Assembly (NCBI GenBank): GCA_964550485.1
Contig: CAZJZM010000003.1
Location: forward strand, 1-37,849
DNA from: Candidatus Micrarchaeota archaeon
GTDB taxonomy: Archaea > Micrarchaeota > Micrarchaeia > Micrarchaeales > CABMGC01
Direction: 5' to 3'
DNA length: 37,849 nucleotides
In this document: in pieces, positions 12,829 to 36,936 of the stretch
Layout of the letters: each line of letters starts with the position of its first letter
Numbering within the stretch: the stretch's first letter is position 1
Made by a program: the position numbers and the translations under genes
Notes under the pieces: model-generated
What the model saw: only the letters and a program-made list of their open reading frames with translations
What the model was told of the DNA's origin: nothing
Database searches by the model: none

Positions 12829-12994
12829 TCACTATATATCTGAAGGGTAGAATATAAACCTTTTGTTTGGACCGATGATATCGGTTTTCAGGAGGAGTTT
12901 GATTACGGTCCGAGCTTGGCCTCATGCGTATAAGGCACTAAGCAAGATATAAATTAATGTGCAGTCAATCCAATACGGTGCAACTTTGGAAGGA

Positions 12995-13906
12995 ATGGAC
13001 GCCCATACTGCCTATCAGAAAATACTCTTCGAGCTTAAAAAGCATATCTCCGGAGACGAGGCGGTCTTGGAGCTGATGTTCATCACCGTGGTGGCCGACG
13101 GCCATGCGCTCCTCGAGGGGGTTCCCGGAGTCGCGAAGACTACGATAACAAAGGCGCTTGCGGACACCATACAAGCCGATTTCAAGAGAATACAGGGAAC
13201 CCCGGACATAGGCCCGAGCGACATAGTCGGATACACCTACCTCGATTCGAAGAACGAGACCGAGGTAAGCAAGGGTCCCGTTTTCACCAATATCCTCCTT
13301 TTCGACGAATTGAACAGGACCCAGCCTAGGGTGATGAGCGCGCTCCTCGAGACGCTTGAGGAAAGGCAGGTGACTCTGGGCGGCCAGACAATGCAGCTTC
13401 CAAAGCCGTTCAACGCCTTCGCCACGCAGAACCCGCTCAGGATAGAGGGAACCGAGCCGCTTCCGAAGGTGCTCGCAGACAGGTTCATAATGCGCATACC
13501 GGTCGATTATCCTTCAAGGGAAGACGAGGGCATGATGCTCAGGCTCAAGGAGGCCGAGGCCAAGGTGGTGGTGAACAAGGTAATAGACACTGAAGACATT
13601 GTTAGGATACAGAACGAGGCCAAGGCGGTGACCCTTCCCGATGATGTCAAGGACTACATAACCGGACTGGTCGATGCCACCAGAAAGGACATACACGCGG
13701 TGATGGGCGCAAGCCCCAGGGCCGACATAGCCTTCATGAACTGCGGCAAGGCCAAGGCGCTCATAGAGGGAAGGAAGGAGGTCAAGTGGGAGGACATAAC
13801 CTTCCTCGCAAGGCCGGTTCTCAGCCACAGGATGACGGTCAGGTCCACTGGAGGAATCGGGGTGCTCGGGATAATAGATGGAATAGTGGCGATCTATGGC
13901 AAATGA
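12995..13906 (+). CDS. MoxR-family AAA+ ATPase
   Basis: GHALLEGVPGVAKT (Walker A), LLFDELNR (Walker B), ATQNPLRIEGTEPLPKVLADRF. ATG 12995 is preferred to the track GTG 12959 because the TATA-like ATATAAATTA is at 12946-12955. Confidence 0.85.
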   Translation: MDAHTAYQKILFELKKHISGDEAVLELMFITVVADGHALLEGVPGVAKTTITKALADTIQADFKRIQGTPDIGPSDIVGYTYLDSKNETEVSKGPVFTNILLFDELNRTQPRVMSALLETLEERQVTLGGQTMQLPKPFNAFATQNPLRIEGTEPLPKVLADRFIMRIPVDYPSREDEGMMLRLKEAEAKVVVNKVIDTEDIVRIQNEAKAVTLPDDVKDYITGLVDATRKDIHAVMGASPRADIAFMNCGKAKALIEGRKEVKWEDITFLARPVLSHRMTVRSTGGIGVLGIIDGIVAIYGK

Positions 13907-13970
13907 CTGCTCTTTGTGCCTAAAACAATCCATTCCGGAAAACATCTCCAAACGACAGGAACACACTAAG

Positions 13971-13980
13971 ATTTAAATAT
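13971..13980 (+). promoter_or_regulatory. TATA box ATTTAAATAT of pilin-like cassette 1
   Basis: About 34 nt upstream of ATG 14013. The same box and following 5' leader are repeated at 14633. Confidence 0.6.
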
Positions 13981-14012
13981 CTGAGCTTAGTTACTACTAA
14001 CTGGGAATTAAT

Positions 14013-14438
14013 ATGATAGGAATCTTCAAGTACCTAAACAAGATAAAGACTGCGGTTTTTGTAGCTACGCTATTTGGCATCATCGCAAGCGTTCTGATAC
14101 CTGGAGTGCAGGCTGTTAACGGCGGCGGCTCGGAACTTCAGGATGTGCTCTGCGGGATCATAGCGGCAATCGCAACAGTAATAGGCGTGCTTGCAATCTT
14201 CATGTTCGTACTGGGCGGAATTCTCTACGCATTCGCACACTTCCTACCGGCGGCAGGAAACCTCAAGGGTTCCATGCAGGGTTGGGGAATGGGAGTGCTC
14301 ATGGGTGGAATAATAATGATCATACTCTACGTCCTGGCGCCTTTCATCGTTGGTACCATACTTGGGTTCAGTACAATAGGCAGCACCAATGCTTCCCTGC
14401 CTAGCGTCGGAGGAGCAACTTGTGCATCAGGGGCATAA
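14013..14438 (+). CDS. Small secreted two-helix membrane protein, VirB2/TrbC/CedA1-like pilin architecture (copy 1, 141 aa)
   Basis: Sec-type signal peptide (KYLNKIKTAVFVATLFGIIASVLIPGVQA). The mature part has two long hydrophobic helices (LCGIIAAIATVIGVLAIFMFVLGGILYAF and MGVLMGGIIMIILYVLAPFIVGTILGF) joined by a short K-containing loop. Confidence 0.55.
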   Translation: MIGIFKYLNKIKTAVFVATLFGIIASVLIPGVQAVNGGGSELQDVLCGIIAAIATVIGVLAIFMFVLGGILYAFAHFLPAAGNLKGSMQGWGMGVLMGGIIMIILYVLAPFIVGTILGFSTIGSTNASLPSVGGATCASGA

Positions 14439-14481
14439 GAAGCATACCTATGCCATTCCAAGATATCGATAGAGAAATTAT

Positions 14482-14510
14482 TGCCGCTTTTTAGCGGCAT
14501 TTGTTTTTAT
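14482..14510 (+). terminator. Hairpin plus T-run terminator of cassette 1
   Basis: TGCCGCT-TTTT-AGCGGCA followed by TTTGTTTTT. Confidence 0.6.
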
Positions 14511-14632
14511 TCTCTTTTTATTCTCTTCTTCTTTCTTACGGGCCATTTTACCGATAATGAATTCGTTTAATGAAAGAAAGAAGGAAATATCCTAGTTCTA
14601 GAAAAGTTCTTTAAATGGCGATTTTGGATAAG

Positions 14633-14642
14633 TTTAAATATC
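14633..14642 (+). promoter_or_regulatory. TATA box TTTAAATATC of pilin-like cassette 2
   Basis: About 33 nt upstream of ATG 14674. Confidence 0.6.
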
Positions 14643-14673
14643 TGAGCTTAGTTACTACTAATTGGGAATTTAC

Positions 14674-15135
14674 ATGATAGGAATCTTCAAGTACCTAAGC
14701 AAGATAAAGATGGCGATTTTTGTAGCTATGCTATTGAGCATTACTGCAAGCGTTCTGATACCTGCAGTGCATGCTGGTACTACGAACGGCGGCGGCGAAG
14801 AACTTCAGGATGTGCTCTGCGGGATCATAGCGGCAATCGCAACAGTAATAGGCGTGCTTGCAATCTTCATGTTCGTACTGGGCGGAATTCTCTACGCATT
14901 CGCACACTTCCTACCGGCGGCAGGAAACCTCAAGGGTTCCATGCAGGGTTGGGGAATGGGAGTGCTCATGGGTGGAATAATAATGATCATACTCTACGTC
15001 CTGGCGCCTTTCATCGTTGGTACCATACTTGGGTTCAGTACAATAGGCAGCACCAATGCTTCCCTGCCTAGCGTTGGAGGGGCAAGCTGCTCGTCTAACG
15101 GCAATCTCGGCAACCTGAACAACGGGCCAGCATAA
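14674..15135 (+). CDS. Small secreted two-helix membrane protein, VirB2/TrbC/CedA1-like pilin architecture (copy 2, 153 aa from the ATG)
   Basis: Paralogue of 14013-14438. The core ELQDVLCG...ASLPSVGGA is identical. The signal peptide and the C-terminal tail (SCSSNGNLGNLNNGPA) differ. ATG 14674 is preferred to the track TTG 14662. Confidence 0.55.
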   Translation: MIGIFKYLSKIKMAIFVAMLLSITASVLIPAVHAGTTNGGGEELQDVLCGIIAAIATVIGVLAIFMFVLGGILYAFAHFLPAAGNLKGSMQGWGMGVLMGGIIMIILYVLAPFIVGTILGFSTIGSTNASLPSVGGASCSSNGNLGNLNNGPA

Positions 15136-15171
15136 CCAACAATCGCCGATCTGCTCAACAATGAGGGATTC

Positions 15172-15200
15172 TGGCCATGATGAATGGCCATTTGTTTTTA
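15172..15200 (+). terminator. Hairpin plus T-run terminator of cassette 2
   Basis: TGGCCAT-GATGA-ATGGCCA followed by TTTGTTTTT. The stem sequence differs from cassette 1 but the structure and T-run are conserved. Confidence 0.6.
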
Positions 15201-15279
15201 TTTCCTTTTTCTCTTTACTCTCATAGGGGCTAATAAATACATTTTTATTACTTAACGTGCACATCATTAGCGTGAATTC

Positions 15280-16011
15280 ATGGGAAGCGTAATCGAGGAC
15301 TCATACGAGACATACTTGTCCAATCTCAACCTTGTTCTGCTCTTTTCTATACCATTCATAATAGCATTTGTGATACCCCTATTTGCCCCACTTCCCACAT
15401 ACATCAGTCTGGGAGGGATCTTTCTCAGGAGCGCGAGCATCTTCACCAACCTAAATTTCCTAGGCCTTGCGGTCATCATAGTGGCGTTCTTCTTCTCACT
15501 CCTCTTCATAAGCTTCGCCTTCGTAGCCATAAGCCTCATAGTCAAGTCCAGAAGGACTAGGCTGAAGATAGGGCAGAGGGCGATACAGGGCATAGAGAAG
15601 TACATAGGAAAGGTCTTTCTGGTATTCCTTTTATATGCCATAATCCTCTCCGTAGCAAACATACTGGGCTATTACCTAGGCATCGAGGCGCTTCTTACAG
15701 GAATAGTAGGGTTCTTCGGATTCATACCATTTTTCTACGCGCCGAGTGCCATAGTGGTTGACGAACAGAAGATCGGAAGGGCATTGAAAAACAGCATCAA
15801 ACTGGTTGCGAAGGAGCCGCAATACTTCATACTCTGGTTCATTCTCATAAGCATAATCCTTTCTGTAATCTCAGTAGTCTTCATAGCCCTTGCCGGAACC
15901 TTCTGGTCAAGGTATATAATCCTGGTCATAAGCTCGCTTTTTGTATTGCCATACTTCGTAATCTTCCAGGCGGAGGCCTATATGAAAAGATTCGCGATTC
16001 TCAGGCATTAG
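15280..16011 (+). CDS. Polytopic membrane protein (about 6 TM), unknown family
   Basis: Hydrophobic throughout, with a central amphipathic segment (VVDEQKIGRALKNSIKLVAKEP). No cysteines. It has its own A/T box near 15232-15248. Confidence 0.6.
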   Translation: MGSVIEDSYETYLSNLNLVLLFSIPFIIAFVIPLFAPLPTYISLGGIFLRSASIFTNLNFLGLAVIIVAFFFSLLFISFAFVAISLIVKSRRTRLKIGQRAIQGIEKYIGKVFLVFLLYAIILSVANILGYYLGIEALLTGIVGFFGFIPFFYAPSAIVVDEQKIGRALKNSIKLVAKEPQYFILWFILISIILSVISVVFIALAGTFWSRYIILVISSLFVLPYFVIFQAEAYMKRFAILRH

Positions 16012-16053: not shown

Positions 16054-17454
16054 TCACGGCCTTGGCGTGTATACATTCCATCCGTATTCACTGTAATTTA
16101 AGAAATAATATTCGTCCGTGGCATTTATTATATCAGGATAGTTGGAAAGCCTTCCTTCAGAGGAAGAGTAATTAGGAAATACTACCGCTGCAAACTTATG
16201 CGTGGAGATATCAGATATTATCTGCGCATCGTTCCATACTCCCTCATTTTTCATCACCCAGAACATGCTAGGCTCAAAGAGAACGGTTTTATTGGCAAAG
16301 ATGGCAACATCAGGGGTTTCCGCAAGCATGGGACCATCTAAATTTCTAAGGCTCAGCCCTACGAGTGAGGAACCACTAGGCGTTTCTGAAAAGAAGGCAT
16401 GCATTGAGATGGATGCAAGGCCGTAGATAAGAAGAAGGGTCACAAACGTGTTGAAGGCTACTATTGGGATTGGCTTGTGTCTACTCGAAATAAGTTCGGT
16501 AAAGGCCACCGCAGAAGTTATACAAGAGATACAAAAGACCGGAACAAAGTAGATATAATCGGAGCCTATTTTGAAGGCGGACAACGAAAAGACAGAGAGC
16601 ACAACCAGGGTTATCGAAAGCAAAGACTTCGGTCTTTTGTATATATAATAAAGGGAAAGTGGAATCAAGAGCATTATTGGTGTCTCGAAGAAGAAGTTTT
16701 CTACATTGGTCAAAAATATATACAATGATGGGGGCGTTATGAGTGGAAGTACGAAGACAGAGAATACAAAGCGGCCATCCGTAATGAGATTAAGCGGCAA
16801 CACGATAAGAATGAAAATTACGGAGAAAATCGCCGCAAAAAACATACAATCCTCAAATCTCCTGTTTATCAGGAGGTATGCTACTATCGCCGCGAATATC
16901 TCAAGTGCACTCTGTCTAAAGAGAAATGCTAATCCAAGGGCCACTGCCGCATAAAGAAGAGATTTCCTATCCTTAGAATAGATGATGAAAAAGAGCGCCA
17001 CAAGATCGAACAAAAGCTCAAACATTATCGGATTCGGACTGATTCCAAAATAAAGAACCAGAGTAGAGGAGAGGAAGAGCAACGGCGCAAAGATGCCAAA
17101 TAATTTATCTGAGCCTATGGTCCTCTTTGTTATTAAGTACATAAAGGCTCCGATAAGCATCGTAGCAAAGAAGGTAAGTGACCTAGAGTAAAGATAAGGC
17201 AGGCTTGATGGCAACAGGTCCCTGAATAAGTCTATCAAAAGGTAAAACAGGGGCGGGTAGTATGTTATCAGATAAGGATAGGTGCTGAAGCTTTTGTAAA
17301 GATAGCTGATCTTCATTATCGAGACTACGCCTTCGCTGTAATCAATGCTATAGGGCCAGAATATGCTCTTGACCAGAAAGAAAATATTCAGAAGCGCAGC
17401 TATTCCAAAAAGTAGTAGAAGCCCAATCAACAATTTTCTATCACTTTCCTTCAT
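16054..17454 (-). CDS. GT-C-fold membrane glycosyltransferase (ArnT/PMT-like)
   Basis: 466 aa with more than 10 TM helices. An early acidic loop motif (IDYSEG) and a C-terminal soluble domain, as in GT39/GT83-type enzymes. Confidence 0.55.
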   Translation of the reverse strand: MKESDRKLLIGLLLLFGIAALLNIFFLVKSIFWPYSIDYSEGVVSIMKISYLYKSFSTYPYLITYYPPLFYLLIDLFRDLLPSSLPYLYSRSLTFFATMLIGAFMYLITKRTIGSDKLFGIFAPLLFLSSTLVLYFGISPNPIMFELLFDLVALFFIIYSKDRKSLLYAAVALGLAFLFRQSALEIFAAIVAYLLINRRFEDCMFFAAIFSVIFILIVLPLNLITDGRFVFSVFVLPLITPPSLYIFLTNVENFFFETPIMLLIPLSLYYIYKRPKSLLSITLVVLSVFSLSAFKIGSDYIYFVPVFCISCITSAVAFTELISSRHKPIPIVAFNTFVTLLLIYGLASISMHAFFSETPSGSSLVGLSLRNLDGPMLAETPDVAIFANKTVLFEPSMFWVMKNEGVWNDAQIISDISTHKFAAVVFPNYSSSEGRLSNYPDIINATDEYYFLNYSEYGWNVYTPRP

Positions 17455-19518: not shown

Positions 19519-21474
19519 TTATGTTTCGGTTTTAATCAGATCTACACTGACCGGACTTGAGTAATAAATGTAGTTCTTGTTGTAGATCATCAGCTGCGAG
19601 ACCGTAACCGAGTCGTTTATGTCTGTTTCTAGTTTTATGCTGACAGGATAGGTGGAATTGGATGGATTTAGGTAAATCCGGTTGGTATTCACCTCGCAGG
19701 GGTAGACCTCTCCTTTGCAATCGACCGCATTGCCTATAAAACTATAATTATAGGCTCCTAGGAAGCCTGAACCCTCCTTGCTTGTTTCAAACAGCAATAA
19801 AGACAGGGTGCCGTTTGCCAGATTGTGGTAATTGATAACGGCGGTGTAGCTCTCCACGCCGGTGCTGTTGTTTAGCGATAGTTTCTCATTGGTTACCGAG
19901 AGGCTGAAAGCCTTCGAGTACTGATAATGGGAATATAAGACAAAGCCAGCGGAAGAGACCAAGATCAACAGTGTTAGGGCGTACAATACTAACTTATTGT
20001 CCTGCAGCCAATTGCCAATCAGCCCTCTGCCCGTAGGTTTTTTCTCCTTCAGGAAATAAGTCACGAATAATAGTGCAACAAAGAAGCCAGTGTATACCAG
20101 TATCGGTCTGGTGATAAACACGAGCGGTAGCATGCTTAGCGGTGCTATCAGTTTTTTGTTATTTGTATAGAGAAGGGCCAGGCAGCCGAGAAGCATGGTC
20201 GCGATCATTAAGACCGCAGCCGCTCTGAACGTCCCTCCGTAGACTACAGTTACAAGATACCCGAGGGGTCCTCCCGAATCTGGGAGTATGTTGCCCAGAG
20301 GGCTTGCCAGCGCATGGATGAACACAGAAGGCCCGATTATGATGAAATACGAATTCAAAAGAAGGAAGACCAAAAGCGCTCCTAGGGCGTCGCCCAAGCC
20401 CTTTTTCCAGCCATAATTATTGATCGAATAGAAGACAAGGAGCAGTACCGGAAACCAGATCAATTCCTGCAGCGAGGCGCATAATCCGAGCAGCAGCCAA
20501 GAGTATTTGCTTTCCAGCTTTACATACGCCAGGATGAGCAGCGCAAGCATCAGGAGATCCACCCCTGATGAGAGCTCGTTCAGTATGAGGACTGAGAAAA
20601 ACGCGATGGTAAATATCGGTCTTCTGTAATAATCCTTGCATGCATACCTCGCAATCACAACAAAGAGGAAGCTAAGGAAGACACCTATCTGCAGTTTTGT
20701 AGCAAGTGAAAACGCATGCGAAGCCCTACTTGAGAGAAGATAGAACGGCACCGAGACAAAGAGGGAGAGCGCAGGATAGACGAACTTTCCAACAACCTGG
20801 TTTGTCATCATAAATGTGGGTGTGCCCACATTTCCTGAAGTGAAATTTGATACTATAAGATTTGCTATATCCAGGCTGTAGGGATTGACTCCGTGGAGCA
20901 GCGGCCTCACGTCAAAGAAATTAATGAATACCTCGTCCGATACGGTTATCTGCGTCTTAAGGATGGTATAATATGGGATAAGAAAGACCAGTATGGCCAG
21001 TATCATGAAGACATATCCAAATACCCTATACTTGCCTTTCCTTGCAAATATCCCTATGGAGAATGTGAGAAAGAACAATATCAAAAAGATGGCGTAGAGA
21101 AAGACGGGAGAGAGAAAAGTCAGCATGGAAATGATCAAGGTCAATACCGCAATAACAAAGGGCTTGTTAAAAAGGCCATAAAGCGGAAAGACCGCAAGAA
21201 AACTGGCAAGAGCAATCACGAACGAAACTTTCAGGACTATCCTTGATCTCCTGCCTAAGTTATTGTCTGATCCGATGAAGACGATGCAATAGGAAAAGAA
21301 AGATATCAGCTCCACAATGCCGCAGAATTCAATGGCGGGGTAAAGGCTGGACCAGTAATTTATTATACTCTGGAAAAGAATCAAGATCAAAGACATTACT
21401 ACTAATCCGCTATGGTAAGGTTTACCCACCACAAGTTTTTTGAGGCGTGAATACGGGTTCTTTCCAGTCTCCAT
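19519..21474 (-). CDS. Large polytopic membrane protein (651 aa) with a C-terminal extracellular domain; possibly a GT-C-like glycosyltransferase
   Basis: More than 12 hydrophobic helices, then a roughly 140-aa sequon-containing soluble tail. It lies 42 nt upstream of, and on the same strand as, 18805-19476. Confidence 0.55.
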   Translation of the reverse strand: METGKNPYSRLKKLVVGKPYHSGLVVMSLILILFQSIINYWSSLYPAIEFCGIVELISFFSYCIVFIGSDNNLGRRSRIVLKVSFVIALASFLAVFPLYGLFNKPFVIAVLTLIISMLTFLSPVFLYAIFLILFFLTFSIGIFARKGKYRVFGYVFMILAILVFLIPYYTILKTQITVSDEVFINFFDVRPLLHGVNPYSLDIANLIVSNFTSGNVGTPTFMMTNQVVGKFVYPALSLFVSVPFYLLSSRASHAFSLATKLQIGVFLSFLFVVIARYACKDYYRRPIFTIAFFSVLILNELSSGVDLLMLALLILAYVKLESKYSWLLLGLCASLQELIWFPVLLLVFYSINNYGWKKGLGDALGALLVFLLLNSYFIIIGPSVFIHALASPLGNILPDSGGPLGYLVTVVYGGTFRAAAVLMIATMLLGCLALLYTNNKKLIAPLSMLPLVFITRPILVYTGFFVALLFVTYFLKEKKPTGRGLIGNWLQDNKLVLYALTLLILVSSAGFVLYSHYQYSKAFSLSVTNEKLSLNNSTGVESYTAVINYHNLANGTLSLLLFETSKEGSGFLGAYNYSFIGNAVDCKGEVYPCEVNTNRIYLNPSNSTYPVSIKLETDINDSVTVSQLMIYNKNYIYYSSPVSVDLIKTET

Positions 21475-25358: not shown

Positions 25359-26732
25359 TCACTCTGTCCTTAGGGCCTTGATAGGGTCCACTGTCGATGC
25401 CTTCCAAGCAGGATAGAGGCTCGAAAGGACGCTCACCACTATCGCTATCAGTATCGCGCCGACAATTATTGTCGGACTCACCTGCGGAGTCAATGAGAAG
25501 CTTGACGCACTGCTGCTTGAGGAAGAACTTGCAATTACCGCCGCTCCGCCTCCTGCAGCTGCACCGCTGCGGCCGCCTGTAAATCCTCCACCGCCCGCCG
25601 CTCCGCCTCCAGTGAATCCTCCGGTTCCGGCCCTGGAGGTTCCAGAACTCGCAGCCGTTGAGGTAGTGGCGGTTGTGCTAGAAGTAGATGAAGCATGGGA
25701 AAGTATTGCGGGAAGGAGATACGCGCCTCCTCCACCCAATGCCACTCCGAAAATCCCGCCGACAAGGCCTATTACCACCGCCTCTGCTAGGAAGAGCGTC
25801 AGGACCTCGCCATTCTTGAATCCTATCGATTTGAGTATCCCTATCTCCCTTGTCCTCTCGGTCACCGAGACCATCATTATGCTGAGTATGCTTATACCCG
25901 CAACTATCAGCGAGATTCCGGCGATCGAGCCGAGAAGCAGGCTTATGGATCCTATCACAGATGAGACTGTTGCGGCTAGCGCCTGGACCGAGAGGATCTC
26001 GGCGTCGCTGCCGTAGATCGTGGTAAGCAGGGTATCAACTGCCGGTGCCGTTGTGGTGTTGGTTGCCTGGACAAGGACCACATTGTAGGAGTAAGTGTTT
26101 AGCAGACTCTCCGCCTCTGGGAGCGAGACGAAGATCGAGCTGTCAGGAGAGATGAAGAGCGAGGATCCATAGGTGTTGAGTATGCCTGAGGTGACTACTG
26201 TTATGCTCTTAGTGTTCGATCCGGAGCCCTGCGTTAGGTATATGGGCTGGTTCAGGAGTACCGAAGAAGTGCTCTGCCCAGTGGTGGGGAAGGCTATGTC
26301 ATGCCCCACAAGTGCCAGGGGAAGGGCCGAATTGTTGAAGCTGGTGCCTTCGTAGATGTTCAGGCTGCCCAGCGCCTTCGTTATGCTGTAGTTGTTCACG
26401 CCTATTATGGTGGCGCTAATGGACTGGCCGTTTATCGAGAGCGTGCCGCTGGACTCCACCATCGGTATTACAGAACTGACGTTGGGCAGCGACTGTATCA
26501 GGGCTATATCAGCGCCAGTGAAGATATGTCCAGGCCGAGGTACTATATAGATCGATGCCGGGCCTATGGTTTCAAGCGACTTGGTGATGCTAGCCGAGCT
26601 TCCTGCCACAAGGGAGATGAGGGCGACTATGGCTGCCACTCCTATCGCTACGCTTAGAATTGTAAGCGCGGTACGGAATTTGCGCTCGGTTATCCCCTTG
26701 ACTCCCAACCAGAGTGTATCTCGCAGTTTCAT
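25359..26732 (-). CDS. MacB/FtsX-type ABC transporter permease with a low-complexity insertion
   Basis: TM1, then a roughly 230-aa extracytoplasmic domain, then the FtsX region (ERTREIGILKSIGF...). A 77-aa S/T/G-rich insert precedes the last TM helix. Confidence 0.8.
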   Translation of the reverse strand: MKLRDTLWLGVKGITERKFRTALTILSVAIGVAAIVALISLVAGSSASITKSLETIGPASIYIVPRPGHIFTGADIALIQSLPNVSSVIPMVESSGTLSINGQSISATIIGVNNYSITKALGSLNIYEGTSFNNSALPLALVGHDIAFPTTGQSTSSVLLNQPIYLTQGSGSNTKSITVVTSGILNTYGSSLFISPDSSIFVSLPEAESLLNTYSYNVVLVQATNTTTAPAVDTLLTTIYGSDAEILSVQALAATVSSVIGSISLLLGSIAGISLIVAGISILSIMMVSVTERTREIGILKSIGFKNGEVLTLFLAEAVVIGLVGGIFGVALGGGGAYLLPAILSHASSTSSTTATTSTAASSGTSRAGTGGFTGGGAAGGGGFTGGRSGAAAGGGAAVIASSSSSSSASSFSLTPQVSPTIIVGAILIAIVVSVLSSLYPAWKASTVDPIKALRTE

Positions 26733-26740
26733 AAATACAC

Positions 26741-28486
26741 TTAGTGGTGCGCAACCTTCGCCTTTTCCTTAGCCGCCTTCTTTTTCCTATGGAGGTAGTA
26801 TGCCACTCCTCCCACAATTACAATTATGACAACGGCAGCCACGGCTATGTAAATTACAAAGTTACCTCTCTTTCTTACATATATTCCCGTACTTGTAAAG
26901 TTGCCATGCCTGTAACTCGTTGAATTATATGTTCCTGTCACTGCACCGCTACCTATTCCAGATGTCGAAGTTCCAACTTCTACATTATAGTAGAAGGTCT
27001 TGTTTTGCCTCTGGTTGAGGTTGTTCAGGTATGAGAGCACTACCGGTATGGTATACTCTCCTGATTTTGCCGAAGGTGAGACTGTGAAACTGACAGTCAT
27101 CGCAGTAGGTGTATCGACAGCTATGCTTCCCAGGAAGGTGGTGTTCTCTCCAAGTATAGTAATCCCTGCTGGAGGCTTAGGCGCGACAGATGCTGCAGTT
27201 GCGGATTGCGATCCGGTATTCTCTATGGTTGAGGTTATGGAGAATATCTCGCCCTGGGTGGGATTTGAAGGTGAGACTACCGTGCTTACCAGCGTCGTGT
27301 TGACATTGCCAGGATTCAGGAAGCTTATGGTCCTCGAATCCGTGACCTGCTGGTTGTCAAGGACGTAGGAAAGGCTTATGTCCAAGGTGGAAACCGCGCT
27401 TGTGGAAGACTGTACATAAAGAGTTATGGGAAGGTTGACGCTCTTTCCGGGGAGGACCTCAGGTACTGCATTCAGGTTGTCTGACCCTATTATGCTAAGC
27501 GGAGAGGACGGGGTAAGGACCACCGAAAGGTTTGTTATCGGATCGGTGCCAGAATTCGAGACGGTCAGATTCATGTTGGTGATCCTTCCGGATACGAGGG
27601 TCTGATTCAGTACCGAAACCAGCACCGATGACTGTGAAGGCAGCGATGCGAACAAACCTAGATTATTGTTAAGGGTTGTATTGTAGCCGTATGGATTTAT
27701 GTAATGTGTATCCAGATTCAGGATCACTGAGGAGCCCGCCTGCGAATTGCCCGCCTGGCTGGGCGCTATGTAAAGCTTGACTGTAACGTTCTTTGTCTGG
27801 CCAGGTGTCAGCGATGATATTGTCTGGGGCTGTCCCAGCAGGCTGACTCCCGAAGACGAGGAGACCATGGTGCTTATGTCTGAAGCTACTCCGCTGCCGG
27901 TATTCGAGACGGTGATGGTCACATTGCTGACCTTTCCTGCGGTTATGTCCGGCGTGGGGGTCTTGAATGAGAGGTTTGCTGCTCCCTGAAGCGGCACCTG
28001 GACGTTCAATTGCTGCTGGACGTCTGTAGAACCGTTATTCGAATCCCAGGAGATTACAAGAGGATACGTGACTATGGTGTAAGGCCCCATGCTGACATTG
28101 CTTCCAATGTTCAAATGGAAGACCATGTTGATTATCGATGGTGGCTGTATGTCCTGCAGATAATATGCAGAGGTCGATGCTCCTGTGAAATCGGTTATCC
28201 CGCCGTATGGGCTCAGGGTAGCCACCACATTCTGAAGTTCGCAATTTGTATCGTAGCTTTCAAGGGTCACAGTTAACGGCACATCCTTGTTTCCCGGAGC
28301 AGCGGAGATGGGATGAGTCGAGTTTCCCCAAGTCACGCTTATCACTTTCAGATTAGGCGTGGACCAGGTCTGGCATCCGACTGACGCAGCGCCTACCACT
28401 CCTATCGTAAGCATCATTATCGCAACTGTGAGCAGCGATGTCCTCAGTATTCTAGTTTCCATTGTTATTCCTCTAAACATGATCAT
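26741..28486 (-). CDS. Large surface protein with repeated CARDB/COG1361-like beta-sandwich domains and a C-terminal TM anchor
   Basis: Signal/TM at the N-terminus. Repeated motif x-V-x-N-T/S-G-S/T (VTITVSNTGSGVASDIS, NLTVSNSGTDPITNLS, TIENTGSQSATAASV). C-terminal helix IYIAVAAVVIIVIVGGVAYY plus a KKK tail. The start may be ATG 28486, 28480 or 28462. Confidence 0.65.
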   Translation of the reverse strand: MIMFRGITMETRILRTSLLTVAIMMLTIGVVGAASVGCQTWSTPNLKVISVTWGNSTHPISAAPGNKDVPLTVTLESYDTNCELQNVVATLSPYGGITDFTGASTSAYYLQDIQPPSIINMVFHLNIGSNVSMGPYTIVTYPLVISWDSNNGSTDVQQQLNVQVPLQGAANLSFKTPTPDITAGKVSNVTITVSNTGSGVASDISTMVSSSSGVSLLGQPQTISSLTPGQTKNVTVKLYIAPSQAGNSQAGSSVILNLDTHYINPYGYNTTLNNNLGLFASLPSQSSVLVSVLNQTLVSGRITNMNLTVSNSGTDPITNLSVVLTPSSPLSIIGSDNLNAVPEVLPGKSVNLPITLYVQSSTSAVSTLDISLSYVLDNQQVTDSRTISFLNPGNVNTTLVSTVVSPSNPTQGEIFSITSTIENTGSQSATAASVAPKPPAGITILGENTTFLGSIAVDTPTAMTVSFTVSPSAKSGEYTIPVVLSYLNNLNQRQNKTFYYNVEVGTSTSGIGSGAVTGTYNSTSYRHGNFTSTGIYVRKRGNFVIYIAVAAVVIIVIVGGVAYYLHRKKKAAKEKAKVAHH

Positions 28487-28493
28487 TTCAATG

Positions 28494-29201
28494 CTAGTGC
28501 CTGTTTTTAACCTGCTTTTCTATAAGGCCGTCCTTCATGTATATGCTTCTTTCCGACAACGCCGCAACATCGGGATCGTGAGTCACTACCAATATGGTGG
28601 TGTGTTTCTCCTCGCACTCCTTGATTATCAGATTCAATACCGATTCAGCAGTCTTCGAATCCAGGTTTCCAGTAGGTTCGTCGGCAAGTATTATTTGCGG
28701 ATTATTTATCAGGGCCCTTGCGATTGCAACCCTCTGCTGCTGCCCACCGCTAAGCTCGTTCGGTTTCTTGTCAAGCTGTGTGCCCATGCCTATCTCGGTG
28801 AGCAGGCGCTTAGCATCCTCTATCTTTTCAGGAGTATCCCTTCCATTCACCATCAGGGAAAGAACGACATTCTGAAGAACGTTGAGGTAAGGAACCAGGT
28901 TGTATGACTGGAAAATGAAGCCTATCTTTATATTTCTTATATTGGCAAGTTGGTTGTCATTTAACGAGGAGACATCGATGCCGTCAAGCAATATTCTTCC
29001 GTGCGTAGGTCTGTCAAGCGTTCCTATCAGATTCATAAGGGTCGTCTTTCCGCTTCCCGAGGGTCCCAGCACAGAGACGAATTCACCTTTCTTCAACGAA
29101 ATTGAAACGTCCTTGATCGCCATATACTCTATATTTTTAGTCGTATAGACCTTCCTGATATGGTCTACCTCTATTACATTACCTTCTGGCTTGGTCTTCA
29201 T
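28494..29201 (-). CDS. MacB/LolD-type ABC transporter ATP-binding protein
   Basis: Walker [11 protein letters not shown]-loop, signature [15 protein letters not shown], Walker [12 protein letters not shown]. Confidence 0.9.
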
Positions 29202-33706: not shown

Positions 33707-35224
33707 CTATGATTGCCTCACGAGCTTCATGACCATGGTAGTGCCGCAGTATTCGACGCATTGGCCGGCTGAGGCGCCGGAGGGAGCGGAGGCCGGGGGA
33801 GGATGGCTGTCCAGAGTCATGAGATCGGTAGTCATTCCGCCGGTATAGGTGGTGCCGTCAGAACTGGAGAGGGATATCGCACTGCTGCTGATGGTCCCTT
33901 GGACCTGGATGGTTTCCGAGCCGGTGGGCAGATAGCAGGGGTTGCTCGGGTCCGGATCCGTGATCACTTTGGTATTGTAGAGGGTGTAGTTGCCCGCCAG
34001 GCTTGTACCTGACTTCGTTAACGTCAATGTCGTTGCGCTTTCGTATACGCAACCGGGTGCGCCTATGTCACTTGTAATGGTAGAACCTGTCCATGTGCTG
34101 TTGTTAACGCCCCCTAAGTTCTCATCGCTGGTTTGTGTCTCTCCGGTGTTGTTCGGCTGTTGACCGTTGCCATTCGGCTCTTGGCCTGTAGGAGTCTGGT
34201 TGTTTGGCTGCTGGTAGTTAGGTTCGTATCCTGGGTCATAGCTGAATACGATCGGATTGGTTATTGTCAAGTCGTCAGTGGAGTTGCCAGGATAATAAAA
34301 TATCATGTAATAAGTCCCGGCTGCCAGCTGCGTGTCTATTGTACTGCTTTGGATATATGTGAAGTATTCGACGTTGCCTTGGCCGGTAAGCCAGGTGATG
34401 GCAGGGGGAGGTTGGGGCCGGATAGTTGAAACGTTCATTTTCGTCTGGGCCCAGGCAGAAGAGGAGGGGCTTGAGGTTTGGTTTACATAGATAGAGAGCA
34501 TGTAGTTGCCGTAGGTTACATTGACTCCGTTAAATGGACGTATTGTAAGGTTGGAATAGCCCCGGATGGGAGTGACATTGTAATACAAACTGTATACTGC
34601 AGAGAGGGGAAGGGATTTGGCTGAGAGCCCAGTCAATACCGCGACAAACTGGTCGCATGTGTCGTTTTTGCCAGACGCCACTTTTGTAAGGATGTTGCAT
34701 CCTTTTCTAGACGCAGAATTATTTAACCGGTTGAGAGTTGCAAACTGGAGAGGCGTGAGTATCGCCATCGCCAGATCAGATTGGGCGCTGTAGGATCCGG
34801 TTATAGATGCTCCTGTCCAGTTGGAAGGTATCGTGAACTCCTGATAATACAAGTTCCCGCATTGGGGAGGTTGGCATTGGGGGGAGATCGCTGTGAATTT
34901 GACCGGAGCTGCGCTCGAATTGAATATGGTGTAGGCTTTAATCGAAGGGGTTGTTGCGGGATTATTCCGGTTTGCCAAACCGATCAGATACAAAAGGAAA
35001 AAGATGACTATCACAACAGCTGCTATCCTCACAACATAGGAACCCATTGAGGTTTTCCCTACGGGAGCTGAAGACGATGATCCTGCCTTTCCGGTCCAGT
35101 TATTGCCCGTGGGCTTGTTTCCCTCTCCGCCTAGTTCCGCCTTCATTTCCAGATACTGTTTTCTGGTTATCTTCCCTTTGGCATAGCGCTCCTTGAGCAC
35201 CTCTGTGCTGTCCTTTTCGCCCAC
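33707..35224 (-). CDS. Surface protein A: N-terminal cytoplasmic SHOCT domain, TM helix, large sequon-rich ectodomain
   Basis: GTG start. LKERYAKGKITRKQYLEMKAEL is the SHOCT signature. TM helix VVRIAAVVIVIFFLLYLIGL. The C-terminal half is paralogous to 37018-37849. Confidence 0.65.
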   Translation of the reverse strand: MGEKDSTEVLKERYAKGKITRKQYLEMKAELGGEGNKPTGNNWTGKAGSSSSAPVGKTSMGSYVVRIAAVVIVIFFLLYLIGLANRNNPATTPSIKAYTIFNSSAAPVKFTAISPQCQPPQCGNLYYQEFTIPSNWTGASITGSYSAQSDLAMAILTPLQFATLNRLNNSASRKGCNILTKVASGKNDTCDQFVAVLTGLSAKSLPLSAVYSLYYNVTPIRGYSNLTIRPFNGVNVTYGNYMLSIYVNQTSSPSSSAWAQTKMNVSTIRPQPPPAITWLTGQGNVEYFTYIQSSTIDTQLAAGTYYMIFYYPGNSTDDLTITNPIVFSYDPGYEPNYQQPNNQTPTGQEPNGNGQQPNNTGETQTSDENLGGVNNSTWTGSTITSDIGAPGCVYESATTLTLTKSGTSLAGNYTLYNTKVITDPDPSNPCYLPTGSETIQVQGTISSSAISLSSSDGTTYTGGMTTDLMTLDSHPPPASAPSGASAGQCVEYCGTTMVMKLVRQS

Positions 35225-35316: not shown

Positions 35317-36936
35317 CTAGCTTTCCAGGTCCTCCTTCATCCTCTCGTACTGCGCCTTTGTTATCTGCCCTTTGGCGTATCTCATCTTCAGCGTCTTCAT
35401 GGAGTCATTCTCCCCTTTTTCCTTTGTGGACTCCTCGCTATTTTGTGCGTTTTTCTTAGTTGCTGTAGCGGACCTGCTTTTGGCAAACTTGTAAATTCTG
35501 TATATGATGTAGAAGAAAGCGGCGACCAATAGAAGGAAAATGATGCCTCCCCCTATCACATGACTGAGCGGCGGCGGAGGCTGGCTTGCTTGCGCTGTTG
35601 TGTTTATTGCAGTTGTCTGGTTTGGCGGTGGCTGCGGAGTGGTTACCTGAGTTGTCTGGTTGCTGCTTGTGGTGTTCTGTATGGGGAGACTTACTGAGCT
35701 TTGGTTTGTCGTAGTTGCATTCTGTTGAGGGTTCTGCTGACTGGCCTGGGTCTGGTTTCCTGGGATATAATCGCTATAGCCGGCGAGGACCTCAGTCAGT
35801 TTACCCGTGGCGAGGTTTTGTACCAGAACGTTTCCGCTTATAACCCGGACGGTGGTATTGCCATTTGAAGCTGATATTGTGTAATTTGTGCCAAAGTCGC
35901 ATATCATCACCTGATACACCATATCGCAATTGAGCTGCTTGTTGCCTACGCCGTTCTCATTTTCGTTGCCAATGGCATTACTGTAAGTAATTATGGCGGA
36001 ACTGAGTGCGAATATGGTATATGAGGTAATCACGACCGGGCAAGCTACTGTACAACCGGCAGCGGCTCCGAGGGCGATTAGGGCTTTATCCAATGTAAAC
36101 TCTTTGACGTATTCGTCTATGGCTGTTTCTTCTGGGGAGCTGGTCGGCTTGCTAGGGATATAATATAGCGTGCCTCCGTTCTGCTCAGCCACCCACTGCT
36201 CTAAGGTCACCTTGCCTGTTGCTTGCACATTGTTCTGGACTCCGGCGCCTTGGATGCTTACAGAAGCGGAATTCAATGTAACCAGGCTGCCTAGCGATAG
36301 GTTGCTAAGTGGTACTGCGTCTCCATCGGCATCCGCCTCGGACGCAGATCCGGTCGATGCTATCTGAAGTCCGCCGTTGGGCACACAGATCTGAATATTC
36401 GGCGAGGGATTGGATAGATGGCTAACTGAAGAACATTCAGGGGAACTCGGTGTTGTGCTTGTTGCACTTCCGCTATTAACCACTACCGAATCAACAAACG
36501 TGAACGTACTGCATGGTGTACCGTCATCCATCTGGCCGCCCTGGCAGCTTATGGTCCAGTCCAACGTGTAATTGCCGCTTGGTGTATCTGCCGGAACGGA
36601 TATCGTATAGCCTCCAAAGGTGCAGCTCCCGAGAGCTACATCACCAAAGTCAATTGAGGATGGAGAGGCCCACGCTCCGGCAGCCCCTGACATTGAACCG
36701 AGCAGGTCTGCCGAGGGGCCACAGTCTCCGTAGGTACAGGTAATGCAAGCCTTCTGGCTCTCCGGCACGCTTGCTCCTGCGTTTACATTGTAAGTGTGGC
36801 CGCTAACAGCCGGAATTGTCGCAAGCATCACAGGAAGAACTAACATTATGAGTATTAATCTTACTAACAGCCTGCTGCGATTAAAGGCATTAGACTTCTG
36901 CGCTTCTTCATCCACAATGACAATCCCATAGTGCAT
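35317..36936 (-). CDS. Surface protein B: signal/TM, Cys-rich ectodomain, C-terminal TM helix and cytoplasmic SHOCT domain
   Basis: N-terminal LLVRLILIMLVLPVMLATIPAVSG. Q/T/N-rich stalk. TM helix GIIFLLLVAAFFYIIY. Terminal LKMRYAKGQITKAQYERMKEDL is SHOCT. Confidence 0.65.
   Translation of the reverse strand: MHYGIVIVDEEAQKSNAFNRSRLLVRLILIMLVLPVMLATIPAVSGHTYNVNAGASVPESQKACITCTYGDCGPSADLLGSMSGAAGAWASPSSIDFGDVALGSCTFGGYTISVPADTPSGNYTLDWTISCQGGQMDDGTPCSTFTFVDSVVVNSGSATSTTPSSPECSSVSHLSNPSPNIQICVPNGGLQIASTGSASEADADGDAVPLSNLSLGSLVTLNSASVSIQGAGVQNNVQATGKVTLEQWVAEQNGGTLYYIPSKPTSSPEETAIDEYVKEFTLDKALIALGAAAGCTVACPVVITSYTIFALSSAIITYSNAIGNENENGVGNKQLNCDMVYQVMICDFGTNYTISASNGNTTVRVISGNVLVQNLATGKLTEVLAGYSDYIPGNQTQASQQNPQQNATTTNQSSVSLPIQNTTSSNQTTQVTTPQPPPNQTTAINTTAQASQPPPPLSHVIGGGIIFLLLVAAFFYIIYRIYKFAKSRSATATKKNAQNSEESTKEKGENDSMKTLKMRYAKGQITKAQYERMKEDLES

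Follow-up and report, generated by a model that had tools for sequence, protein, structure and literature searches.

A stretch of 37,849 nucleotides from a Candidatus Micrarchaeota archaeon (contig CAZJZM010000003.1; this whole stretch is referred to below as the window) carries two adjacent genes for small hairpin proteins with N-terminal signal peptides. On balance, and with modest confidence, we read them as a tandem pair from a family of small secreted hairpin proteins that is spread across the Micrarchaeota and distantly akin to the VirB2/TrbC-type pilins; the two paralogues would serve a machine resembling the type IV secretion systems (T4SS) and the Ced/Ted systems of archaea. This reading draws on the architecture of the family, on the pilin families that are the only ones its members match recurrently, and on an operon that joins the gene, in relatives, to an ATPase of the VirB4/HerA group. 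Loci fetched from other genomes are cited below by their L numbers and individual related proteins by their P numbers.

A family of Cys-bracketed hairpin proteins in Micrarchaeota

The N-termini of both products resemble signal peptides, with the −3/−1 pattern V-Q-A in copy 1 and V-H-A in copy 2. An AlphaFold2 model (predicted local distance difference test score, pLDDT, of 67) consists of a signal helix, residues 4-34, followed by a hairpin of two helices, residues 42-79 and 86-124, and the hydropathy segments agree with it. The model thereby bears out the Sec-type signal peptide and the two hydrophobic helices that a preliminary description, made from the letters of this DNA alone, had proposed.

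A search of a protein collection returned 36 relatives at E < 1e-19, and the named contigs among them belong to Candidatus Micrarchaeota or Micrarchaeia. Scanning GTDB with one genome per species gave 34 loci, almost all from Micrarchaeota metagenome-assembled genomes, while an exhaustive HMMER search with the family profile gave 295 cluster representatives; the named members among the wider relatives are likewise Micrarchaeota. The family is thus found almost only in this DPANN lineage. One locus, L008 (DATJMH010000022.1), bears the label 'Candidatus Saccharimonadales bacterium', yet its contig holds archaeal Rpo4, DUF655 and the Micrarchaeota module, and has probably been misbinned from an archaeon. 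For P0177 and P0184, the relatives furthest removed, the contigs measure ~0.5 kb and the context is uninformative.

In the alignment of the 36 close members, a variable signal peptide is followed by an invariant Cys, helix 1, a near-invariant loop (HFLPAAGNLKGSMQGWG), helix 2, a variable linker, a second invariant Cys and a tail; the two invariant residues are Cys49 and Cys139 in the numbering of copy 2. Across the wider family, where hairpin units were recognised by motif, both Cys are present in 156 of 158 units and the inter-helix loop contains K or R in all 158. The second Cys is the very last residue in 32 of these units and lies at most five residues from the end in 54 more. The preliminary description had noted the Cys pair in the two copies and suggested surveying relatives for copy number and tails: the pair turns out to be the hallmark of the family, the loci hold one to three pilin copies each, and the tail after the second Cys ranges from 0 to >40 residues.

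In some relatives, large Ig-like or PKD-like domains precede the hairpin on its N-terminal side. Others are polyproteins in which Cys-bracketed hairpins follow one another in tandem behind an N-terminal extracellular domain, namely P0037 (1071 aa, seven units), P0038 (632 aa, four units) and P0040 (342 aa, four units). These may be processed into subunits, or may be proteins with 8-14 transmembrane (TM) helices built of pilin-like repeats; the neighbours of P0037 are uninformative.

Similarity to T4SS pilin families

Copy 2 matched the T4SS_pilin family (PF18895) with 17.5 bits (E = 0.0044) over profile positions 3-71 of 71, with the alignment falling on the mature hairpin, and copy 1 matched it with 11.8 bits. 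Among the 36 close members, PF18895 was matched by 26 and the TrbC/VirB2 family (PF04956) by 11. Among 111 wider relatives, each of the two families was matched by 26, with best E values of 1.4e-6 for PF18895 and 1.3e-7 for PF04956, and any other Pfam family by three at most. The relative P0177 reaches the gathering score of PF18895 (26.8 bits against 26.6) and comes near that of PF04956 (25.9 bits against 27.9). Furthermore, the Cys before TM1 aligns with Cys64 of Agrobacterium VirB2 in an hhalign alignment of low confidence. By analogy with published pilus structures, the basic residue of the loop may face the lumen and bind lipid, as it does in solved pili. The matches of both window proteins in NCBIfam were to transporter fragments only and were set aside as spurious. 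We regard distant membership of the window proteins in the VirB2/T4SS_pilin superfamily as likely, not as established.

In relatives, the pilin-like gene opens an operon with a VirB4/HerA-family ATPase at its end

Local hidden Markov model (HMM) searches of the fetched loci revealed a conserved block composed of the pilin gene (one to three copies), a gene for a polytopic protein of ~640 aa and a gene for a 243-aa membrane protein, here called tm243. The block recurs across ~40 loci throughout the phylum, usually with a MoxR gene upstream. Of the first 41 loci fetched, 35 have tm243 downstream of their pilin gene or genes, and adjacent to them unless the ~640-aa gene stands between. Five or six genes for polytopic membrane proteins follow tm243 in L021, L022, L027, L032, L033, L045 and L047. 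The full co-directional operon, found in L050, L051 and L052, runs from the pilin through the ~640-aa protein, tm243, six polytopic proteins and two proteins of ~275 aa, each with two N-terminal TM helices, to an ATPase of ~500 aa. The intergenic gaps between the ~640-aa gene and the ATPase gene of L050 measure -10 to +55 nt, and four of its polytopic proteins are mutual paralogues. In relatives, a DUF2079 protein, which we take to belong to a polytopic membrane-protein family of glycosyltransferase-C (GT-C) affinity, is encoded inside the operon between the ~640-aa gene and tm243. Only this protein and the ATPase, among the operon partners, matched Pfam families.

The ATPase has the domains DUF87, AAA_10 and P-loop_TraG. 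In L001 all three score above the curated thresholds (55.5, 44.5 and 36.1 bits, respectively), and the protein matches the solved structures of HerA (2.8e-12) and VirB4 (1e-7). At this locus, the ATPase gene and the rest of the cluster's distal half have been relocated to just upstream of DUF655, 3 kb upstream of the pilin gene. The cluster can therefore be split, as it evidently is in the genome of the window. We considered whether the ATPase cluster of L001 could be an unrelated defence or mobile insertion and rejected this, as the same genes are contiguous with the pilin operon in L050-L052. The preliminary description had made the pilin interpretation depend on an assembly ATPase in the genome, and relatives answer this positively, with the orthologous gene at the head of an operon that ends in a VirB4/HerA-family ATPase.

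As a densely packed Micrarchaeota gene group in its own right, the ~13-gene operon extends over L050:7703-20732 and is also seen in L051, L052, L049, L022, L032, L033, L045 and L047. On the 727-kb Micrarchaeota contig of L049, archaeal type IV pilus genes (one T2SSE ATPase and two T2SSF; L049:1865-6124) lie directly upstream on the opposite strand. A DUF192 gene and a PemK toxin pair are inserted between MoxR and the pilin gene at L051:4911-5897, and a DDE transposase gene lies beside an inverted MoxR-Rpo4-DUF655 segment at L004:14220-15071.

Two complete cassettes with an identical core

Each of the two window copies has a TATA box, an open reading frame (ORF) and a hairpin followed by a T-tract, in keeping with the two self-contained promoter-ORF-terminator cassettes of the preliminary description. 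A 29-mer starting TTTAAATA is identical at 13972 and 14633 and has no other site in the window, where none would be expected by chance. From the end of the TATA box to the ATG, the spacing is 33 nt in both cassettes; the leader of about 33 nt described earlier is right in its length, which is that of the TATA-to-ATG spacing and not of an mRNA leader. The same TTTGTTTTTA follows both terminator stems, which are 7-bp hairpins unrelated to each other. A T-rich block, CATTTGTTTTTATTCTCTTTTT, present after the stems (window 14498-14530 and 15189-15210), is 91% alike between the cassettes and partly tandem-repeated after cassette 1. The mechanical ORF list starts ORF2 at TTG 14662; we prefer ATG 14674 because of the alignment with copy 1.

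Base comparison of the two copies yielded a maximal exact tract of 275 nt at an offset of 667, so that the complete identity reported in the preliminary description holds to the base. Upstream of it, 13972-14118 and 14633-14779 differ at 16 of 147 nt (~11% divergence), after which a 6-nt indel follows. Three of these differences are among the 41 bases that do not code and 13 among the 106 that do, which confirms the substitutions and the indel previously noted in the signal-peptide region; of the codon changes there, 10 are nonsynonymous and one is synonymous. Downstream of the tract, the alignment is lost within ~15 nt (tails GATCASGA and GASCSSNGNLGNLNNGPA) and this flank cannot be aligned, so that the tails, like the terminator stems, are as unrelated as had been described.

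At a flank divergence of 5-11%, the probability of 275 consecutive identities is 7e-7 to 2e-14. For third positions alone, with 10% divergence, the probability of no difference over the tract is ~7e-5. The 10:1 ratio of nonsynonymous to synonymous changes in the signal-peptide codons is compatible with near-neutral drift, and protein-level purifying selection therefore cannot explain why the core lacks synonymous changes altogether. In other genomes, tandem paralogues are 53-72% identical overall. Those of L013 and L020 agree exactly over 87 and 90 nt of the loop-TM2 core and are otherwise 59-64% identical, and paralogues within one genome have lineage-specific core substitutions in common. 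Gene conversion of the core, as the preliminary description had suggested, is thus supported by the tract statistics and by the exact core tracts of other genomes. We propose that the whole cassette, from promoter through terminator, was duplicated, given that promoter block, ORF and T-tract are recognisably paired. Gene conversion would since then have kept the core uniform, with divergence confined to the signal peptide and the exposed C-terminal tail, leaving two subunits with the same packing core and different surface tails.

The identity could instead have been made, or inflated, during assembly, if near-identical paralogues or strain alleles were collapsed to one consensus, with the tandem arrangement itself still being real. 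The window looks like one contig from a metagenome, its proteins being recorded on a contig of 37,849 bp, and assemblers often smooth near-identical repeats. We nevertheless judge this explanation improbable: the ends of the tract are sharp, with real divergence on either side, tandem copies occur at no fewer than nine other loci, and the 87- and 90-nt exact tracts stem from independent assemblies of paralogues that are otherwise well diverged. Furthermore, the junction between the cassettes (14439-14632) is unique and could not be created by a path that mixes strains. The uniqueness of this inter-cassette sequence speaks for a real tandem arrangement.

Neighbouring genes in the window

The genes of the window are arranged in the order DUF655 (-), Rpo4 (-), MoxR (+), pilin 1, pilin 2, tm243 (+) and a PMT_2 glycosyltransferase (-), with a 651-aa polytopic protein (-) further on (Table 1). 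The MoxR ATPase was considered as a dedicated motor and not adopted, since it stays with Rpo4 and DUF655 in rearranged loci; its functional link to the pilin module is uncertain. The AlphaFold2 model of tm243 has a pLDDT of 81 and a predicted template modelling score (pTM) of 0.78, and its best fold matches are choline-transporter-like (E = 0.3-0.5, TM-score ~0.47); no Pfam family matched it. The 651-aa protein is a homologue of the gene that lies between the pilin and tm243 in many relatives, displaced and inverted in the window, and gave no match in Pfam or the PDB. With ~12 TM helices and no Walker A motif, it was rejected as an assembly ATPase; its invariant D-E motif and its neighbours suggest that it may be GT-C-like. 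The PMT_2 enzyme may glycosylate surface parts of the system.

Table 1 Positions of the features discussed (window coordinates unless a locus is named)
Feature	Position	Strand	Description
Cassette 1 TATA box (TTTAAATA)	13972..13979	+	Opens the 29-nt promoter/leader block, same in cassette 2
Pilin-like gene copy 1, 141 aa	14013..14438	+	Signal peptide residues 1-34 (VQA), Cys47, TM1, loop HFLPAAGNLKGSMQGWG, TM2, Cys137, tail of 4 residues
Exact identity tract, copy 1	14133..14407	+	275 nt, codons 41-131 of ORF1, mature hairpin core
Terminator-like element 1	14482..14509	+	7-bp stem TGCCGCT/AGCGGCA, then TTTGTTTTTA
Cassette 2 TATA box	14633..14640	+	Start of the second 29-nt block
Pilin-like gene copy 2, 153 aa	14674..15135	+	Signal peptide (VHA), Cys49, same core, Cys139, Asn/Gly-rich tail of 14 residues
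Exact identity tract, copy 2	14800..15074	+	275 nt, codons 43-133 of ORF2
Terminator-like element 2	15172..15200	+	7-bp stem TGGCCAT/ATGGCCA, then TTTGTTTTTA
MoxR-type AAA+ ATPase	12959..13906	+	Upstream co-oriented neighbour in most loci
tm243, conserved 243-aa membrane protein	15280..16011	+	6-7 TM helices
PMT_2 glycosyltransferase, GT-C type	16054..17454	-	Beside the module
651-aa protein	19519..21474	-	~12 TM helices, extracytoplasmic C-terminal domain, invariant D180-E181
Polyprotein locus	L042:2675-5890

Elsewhere in the window, a tRNA-Glu(CTC) gene (2746-2822, +) lies inside the 5' part of an ORF for a 473-aa RFC-like AAA+ protein (1481-2902, -), whose true start is probably further downstream than the mechanical call. 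At 25359-29201 (-), a 581-aa CARDB/NPCBM-associated surface protein is encoded between a permease of the MacB/FtsX type and an ABC ATPase, and a 583-aa ArsR-HTH protein is encoded upstream of this group. Finally, two adjacent proteins of 505 and 539 aa (33707-35224 and 35317-36936, -) have SHOCT-type short C-terminal domains and low-complexity regions.

A model for the system and its alternatives

Following export by Sec, the precursor would be cut after VQA or VHA, judging from the −3/−1 pattern, to give a mature protein of ~107-119 aa. From its predicted topology, this would form a two-helix membrane hairpin with both ends outside and the K/R loop in the cytoplasm, probably closed by a disulfide between the flanking Cys as a non-peptide analogue of VirB2/TrbC cyclisation. 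The subunits might then be extracted and polymerised, or assembled into a channel, by the machine whose genes are linked to the pilin gene in relatives: the ~640-aa protein with 12 TM helices, tm243, the six polytopic proteins, the two bitopic ~275-aa proteins and the HerA-clade/VirB4-like ATPase. The likely product would be a pilus, or else a short conduit, borne on the cell surface of an obligately episymbiotic archaeon, presumably with the variable tail exposed. In the genome of the window, the cluster would be split, its head alone lying within the window. That the subunits form a filament, that a disulfide closes them and that DNA is taken up are inferences.

Several observations weigh against a pilin of this kind. 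Both window proteins, with 17.5 and 11.8 bits, score under the 26.6 bits of PF18895, and neither matched PF04956 in the Pfam scan. An hhalign comparison of the family with an alignment of 36 annotated VirB2 proteins gave a probability of 2.4% (E = 0.019); this alignment, made with an Agrobacterium VirB2 query that matched annotated virB2 genes at 99%, is narrow (Neff ~3). Foldseek against the PDB, run with the full-length model including the signal peptide, gave a best E of 4.3, and no pilin was found when the PDB was searched by sequence and by profile, starting from the single protein, from the close family and from the wide family. Short hairpins are poor queries, hence these structure and profile nulls are weak as negative evidence. 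The VirB2/TrbC interpretation of the preliminary description stands in so far as PF18895 and PF04956 are the sole recurrent families; the matches of the window proteins themselves stay below threshold, and the Foldseek, PDB and hhalign searches do not back it.

The partners raise difficulties of the same kind. Apart from the ATPase, none of the operon partners matched a T4SS family, none matched VirB6/TrbL in Pfam, and no relaxase or coupling protein was seen among them. tm243 was examined as an analogue of VirB6/CedA and gained no support, with no VirB6-like fold or profile match; an hhalign comparison of the pilin and tm243 families gave a probability of 0.5%, unlike the relation between CedA and CedA1, where homology of the channel's N-terminal part to the pilin is reported, and the pilin HMM found no hairpin in the operon partners of L001, L045 and L047, the loci searched. 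In agreement with the preliminary description, no VirB4/CedB/HerA-type ATPase is encoded in the 37.8 kb of the window. Polyproteins with four to seven hairpins are hard to fit to a simple pilin unless they are processed. Finally, a near-invariant loop and a fixed chromosomal position beside housekeeping genes are more typical of a core membrane-complex subunit than of a pilin.

The main rival starts from this last point and holds that the protein never leaves the membrane, being a resident subunit of a Micrarchaeota-specific envelope machine, comparable to CedA2, to VirB3-type small subunits or to a scaffold or anchor. The HerA-type ATPase would then power surface glycosylation, S-layer anchoring or transport, and the likeness to VirB2 would come from a generic hairpin or very old homology. 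Besides the conserved loop and the core-genome position of the gene, this rival gains from partners of possible GT-C type (DUF2079 in the operon, with the presumed affinity mentioned above, the adjacent PMT_2 enzyme and the D-E motif of the 651-aa protein), from the many relatives in which large extracellular domains, Ig-like or PKD-like, precede the hairpin in the manner of an anchored protein, from the multi-hairpin polyproteins, and from the want of a structural or profile match to solved pilins. Moreover, S-layer anchoring in Micrarchaeota is described as unknown in its mechanism (PMC8975820). Against it speak the recurrent family matches, which are to pilin families alone and include a full-length profile alignment on the mature hairpin, and the ATPase, which belongs to the VirB4/HerA group rather than to any pathway of glycosylation. 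In addition, a polymer subunit exposed at the surface would be expected to have a signal peptide that can be cleaved off, extracellular Cys on both flanks and a variable exposed tail that diversifies between tandem copies. We consider a membrane-resident, non-filament role rather unlikely.

We give hardly any credence to the proposal that the two genes encode secreted hydrophobic antimicrobial peptides of a bacteriocin- or halocin-like type, possibly circularised or disulfide-closed, with the downstream membrane protein as immunity or maturation factor and the tandem copies as variant toxins. The products are indeed small and secreted, with hydrophobic helices and a Cys pair, and they occur as tandem variable copies next to a multi-TM neighbour. 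Toxin loci, however, are typically sporadic and fast-evolving, whereas this gene has one fixed place in the chromosome in virtually all Micrarchaeota lineages sampled, has a highly conserved core and is linked to a 13-gene machine with a VirB4/HerA ATPase. Furthermore, no bacteriocin-like family was found for the window proteins in Pfam or NCBIfam, nor for their relatives in Pfam.

The pilin-like reading can be carried further, and we do so tentatively, as the extended version seems possible and is in our view doubtful. It sees in the cluster a phylum-wide apparatus, fixed in the chromosome and descended from T4SS, with a disulfide-closed VirB2-like pilin, a HerA/VirB4 ATPase and about nine lineage-specific membrane proteins, which would form a filament or conduit to Thermoplasmatales hosts for the uptake of DNA, lipids or metabolites and would be the archaeal counterpart of the T4SS of Patescibacteria. 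The pilin of such an apparatus would sometimes come as tandem copies with a concerted core, or as multi-hairpin polyproteins, and the Micrarchaeota would be episymbionts dependent on lipids and nucleotides.

Comparison with known systems

Ced/Ted systems consist of a VirB2-like pilin (CedA1/TedC), a VirB6-like channel encoded next to it (CedA/TedA) and a VirB4-/HerA-clade ATPase (TedB/CedB), which is sometimes encoded elsewhere (PMC9905601, PMC11868833). TedC has a signal peptidase I site (PMC9905601), and CedB and CedD are HerA-clade ATPases with VirB4-like N-termini (PMC11868833). Like these systems of Thermoproteales and Sulfolobales, the Micrarchaeota cluster is archaeal, chromosomal rather than plasmid-borne and free of a relaxase, and it places a small gene for a two-helix pilin-like protein beside genes for polytopic membrane proteins. 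The signal peptides of the Micrarchaeota proteins are of the signal peptidase I type, as in TedC, and the ATPase of the HerA/VirB4 group may be apart from the pilin gene, as would be the case in the genome of the window. On the other hand, neither sequence nor fold comparison detected a match to CedA1/TedC or CedA/TedA, and the operon holds about nine further lineage-specific membrane proteins, among them the six polytopic paralogues. The Micrarchaeota pilin is also bracketed by two invariant Cys and has a MoxR ATPase as conserved neighbour, and the host is a DPANN episymbiont, not a member of the Thermoproteota.

With the bacterial VirB2/TrbC (PF04956) and T4SS_pilin (PF18895) proteins, the family has in common the signal peptide, the two-helix hairpin, the short loop with a basic residue and a similar size. 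The sequence similarity is weak and consistent, with some relatives reaching the thresholds and the window proteins below them. Unlike VirB2/TrbC, the Micrarchaeota family gives no evidence of head-to-tail cyclisation and has the Cys pair and a variable tail instead. The system is best filed as a T4SS-derived (Ced/Ted-like) variant, and not as a demonstrated member of VirB2/TrbC.

The T4SS of Patescibacteria (Candidate Phyla Radiation, CPR) include tandem arrays of 2-11 VirB2-like genes, often but not always near virB4, and have no relaxase, which points to a function other than conjugation (PMC12102498). The resemblance to the Micrarchaeota cluster lies in the ultra-small episymbiont hosts, the tandem VirB2-like genes and the missing relaxase. 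The Patescibacteria systems differ in being bacterial, of MPF-FATA ancestry and equipped with recognisable VirB6, VirB3 and VirB8 homologues, and the members of their arrays are ~25% identical (PMC12102498), compared with the identical core of the two window copies. This identical core therefore indicates concerted evolution. In the literature searched, no VirB2-like system was found described for Micrarchaeota or other DPANN archaea, which agrees with the preliminary description of a lineage without a known pilin system of this type; the one related report deals with giant surface proteins of nanohaloarchaea that have VirB4/TraG-like ATPase domains.

Significance

DPANN archaea rely on direct contact with their host cells, and the means by which material is exchanged are largely unknown. 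Filaments have been seen at the contact sites between a micrarchaeon and its host, and their molecular identity is lacking (PMC8975820). The gene cluster described here points to an undescribed conjugation-like surface machine in Micrarchaeota, in which a VirB2-like subunit together with a cluster encoding a VirB4/HerA ATPase would supply concrete candidates for the contact interface. If this is true, archaeal T4SS-derived systems extend beyond the Thermoproteota and run parallel to the T4SS and pilin arrays of the ultra-small CPR symbionts. The Cys-bracketed hairpin would be a new way of closing a pilin of the conjugative type, and the identical core with divergent tails would clearly exemplify how concerted evolution and diversification at the surface can go together.

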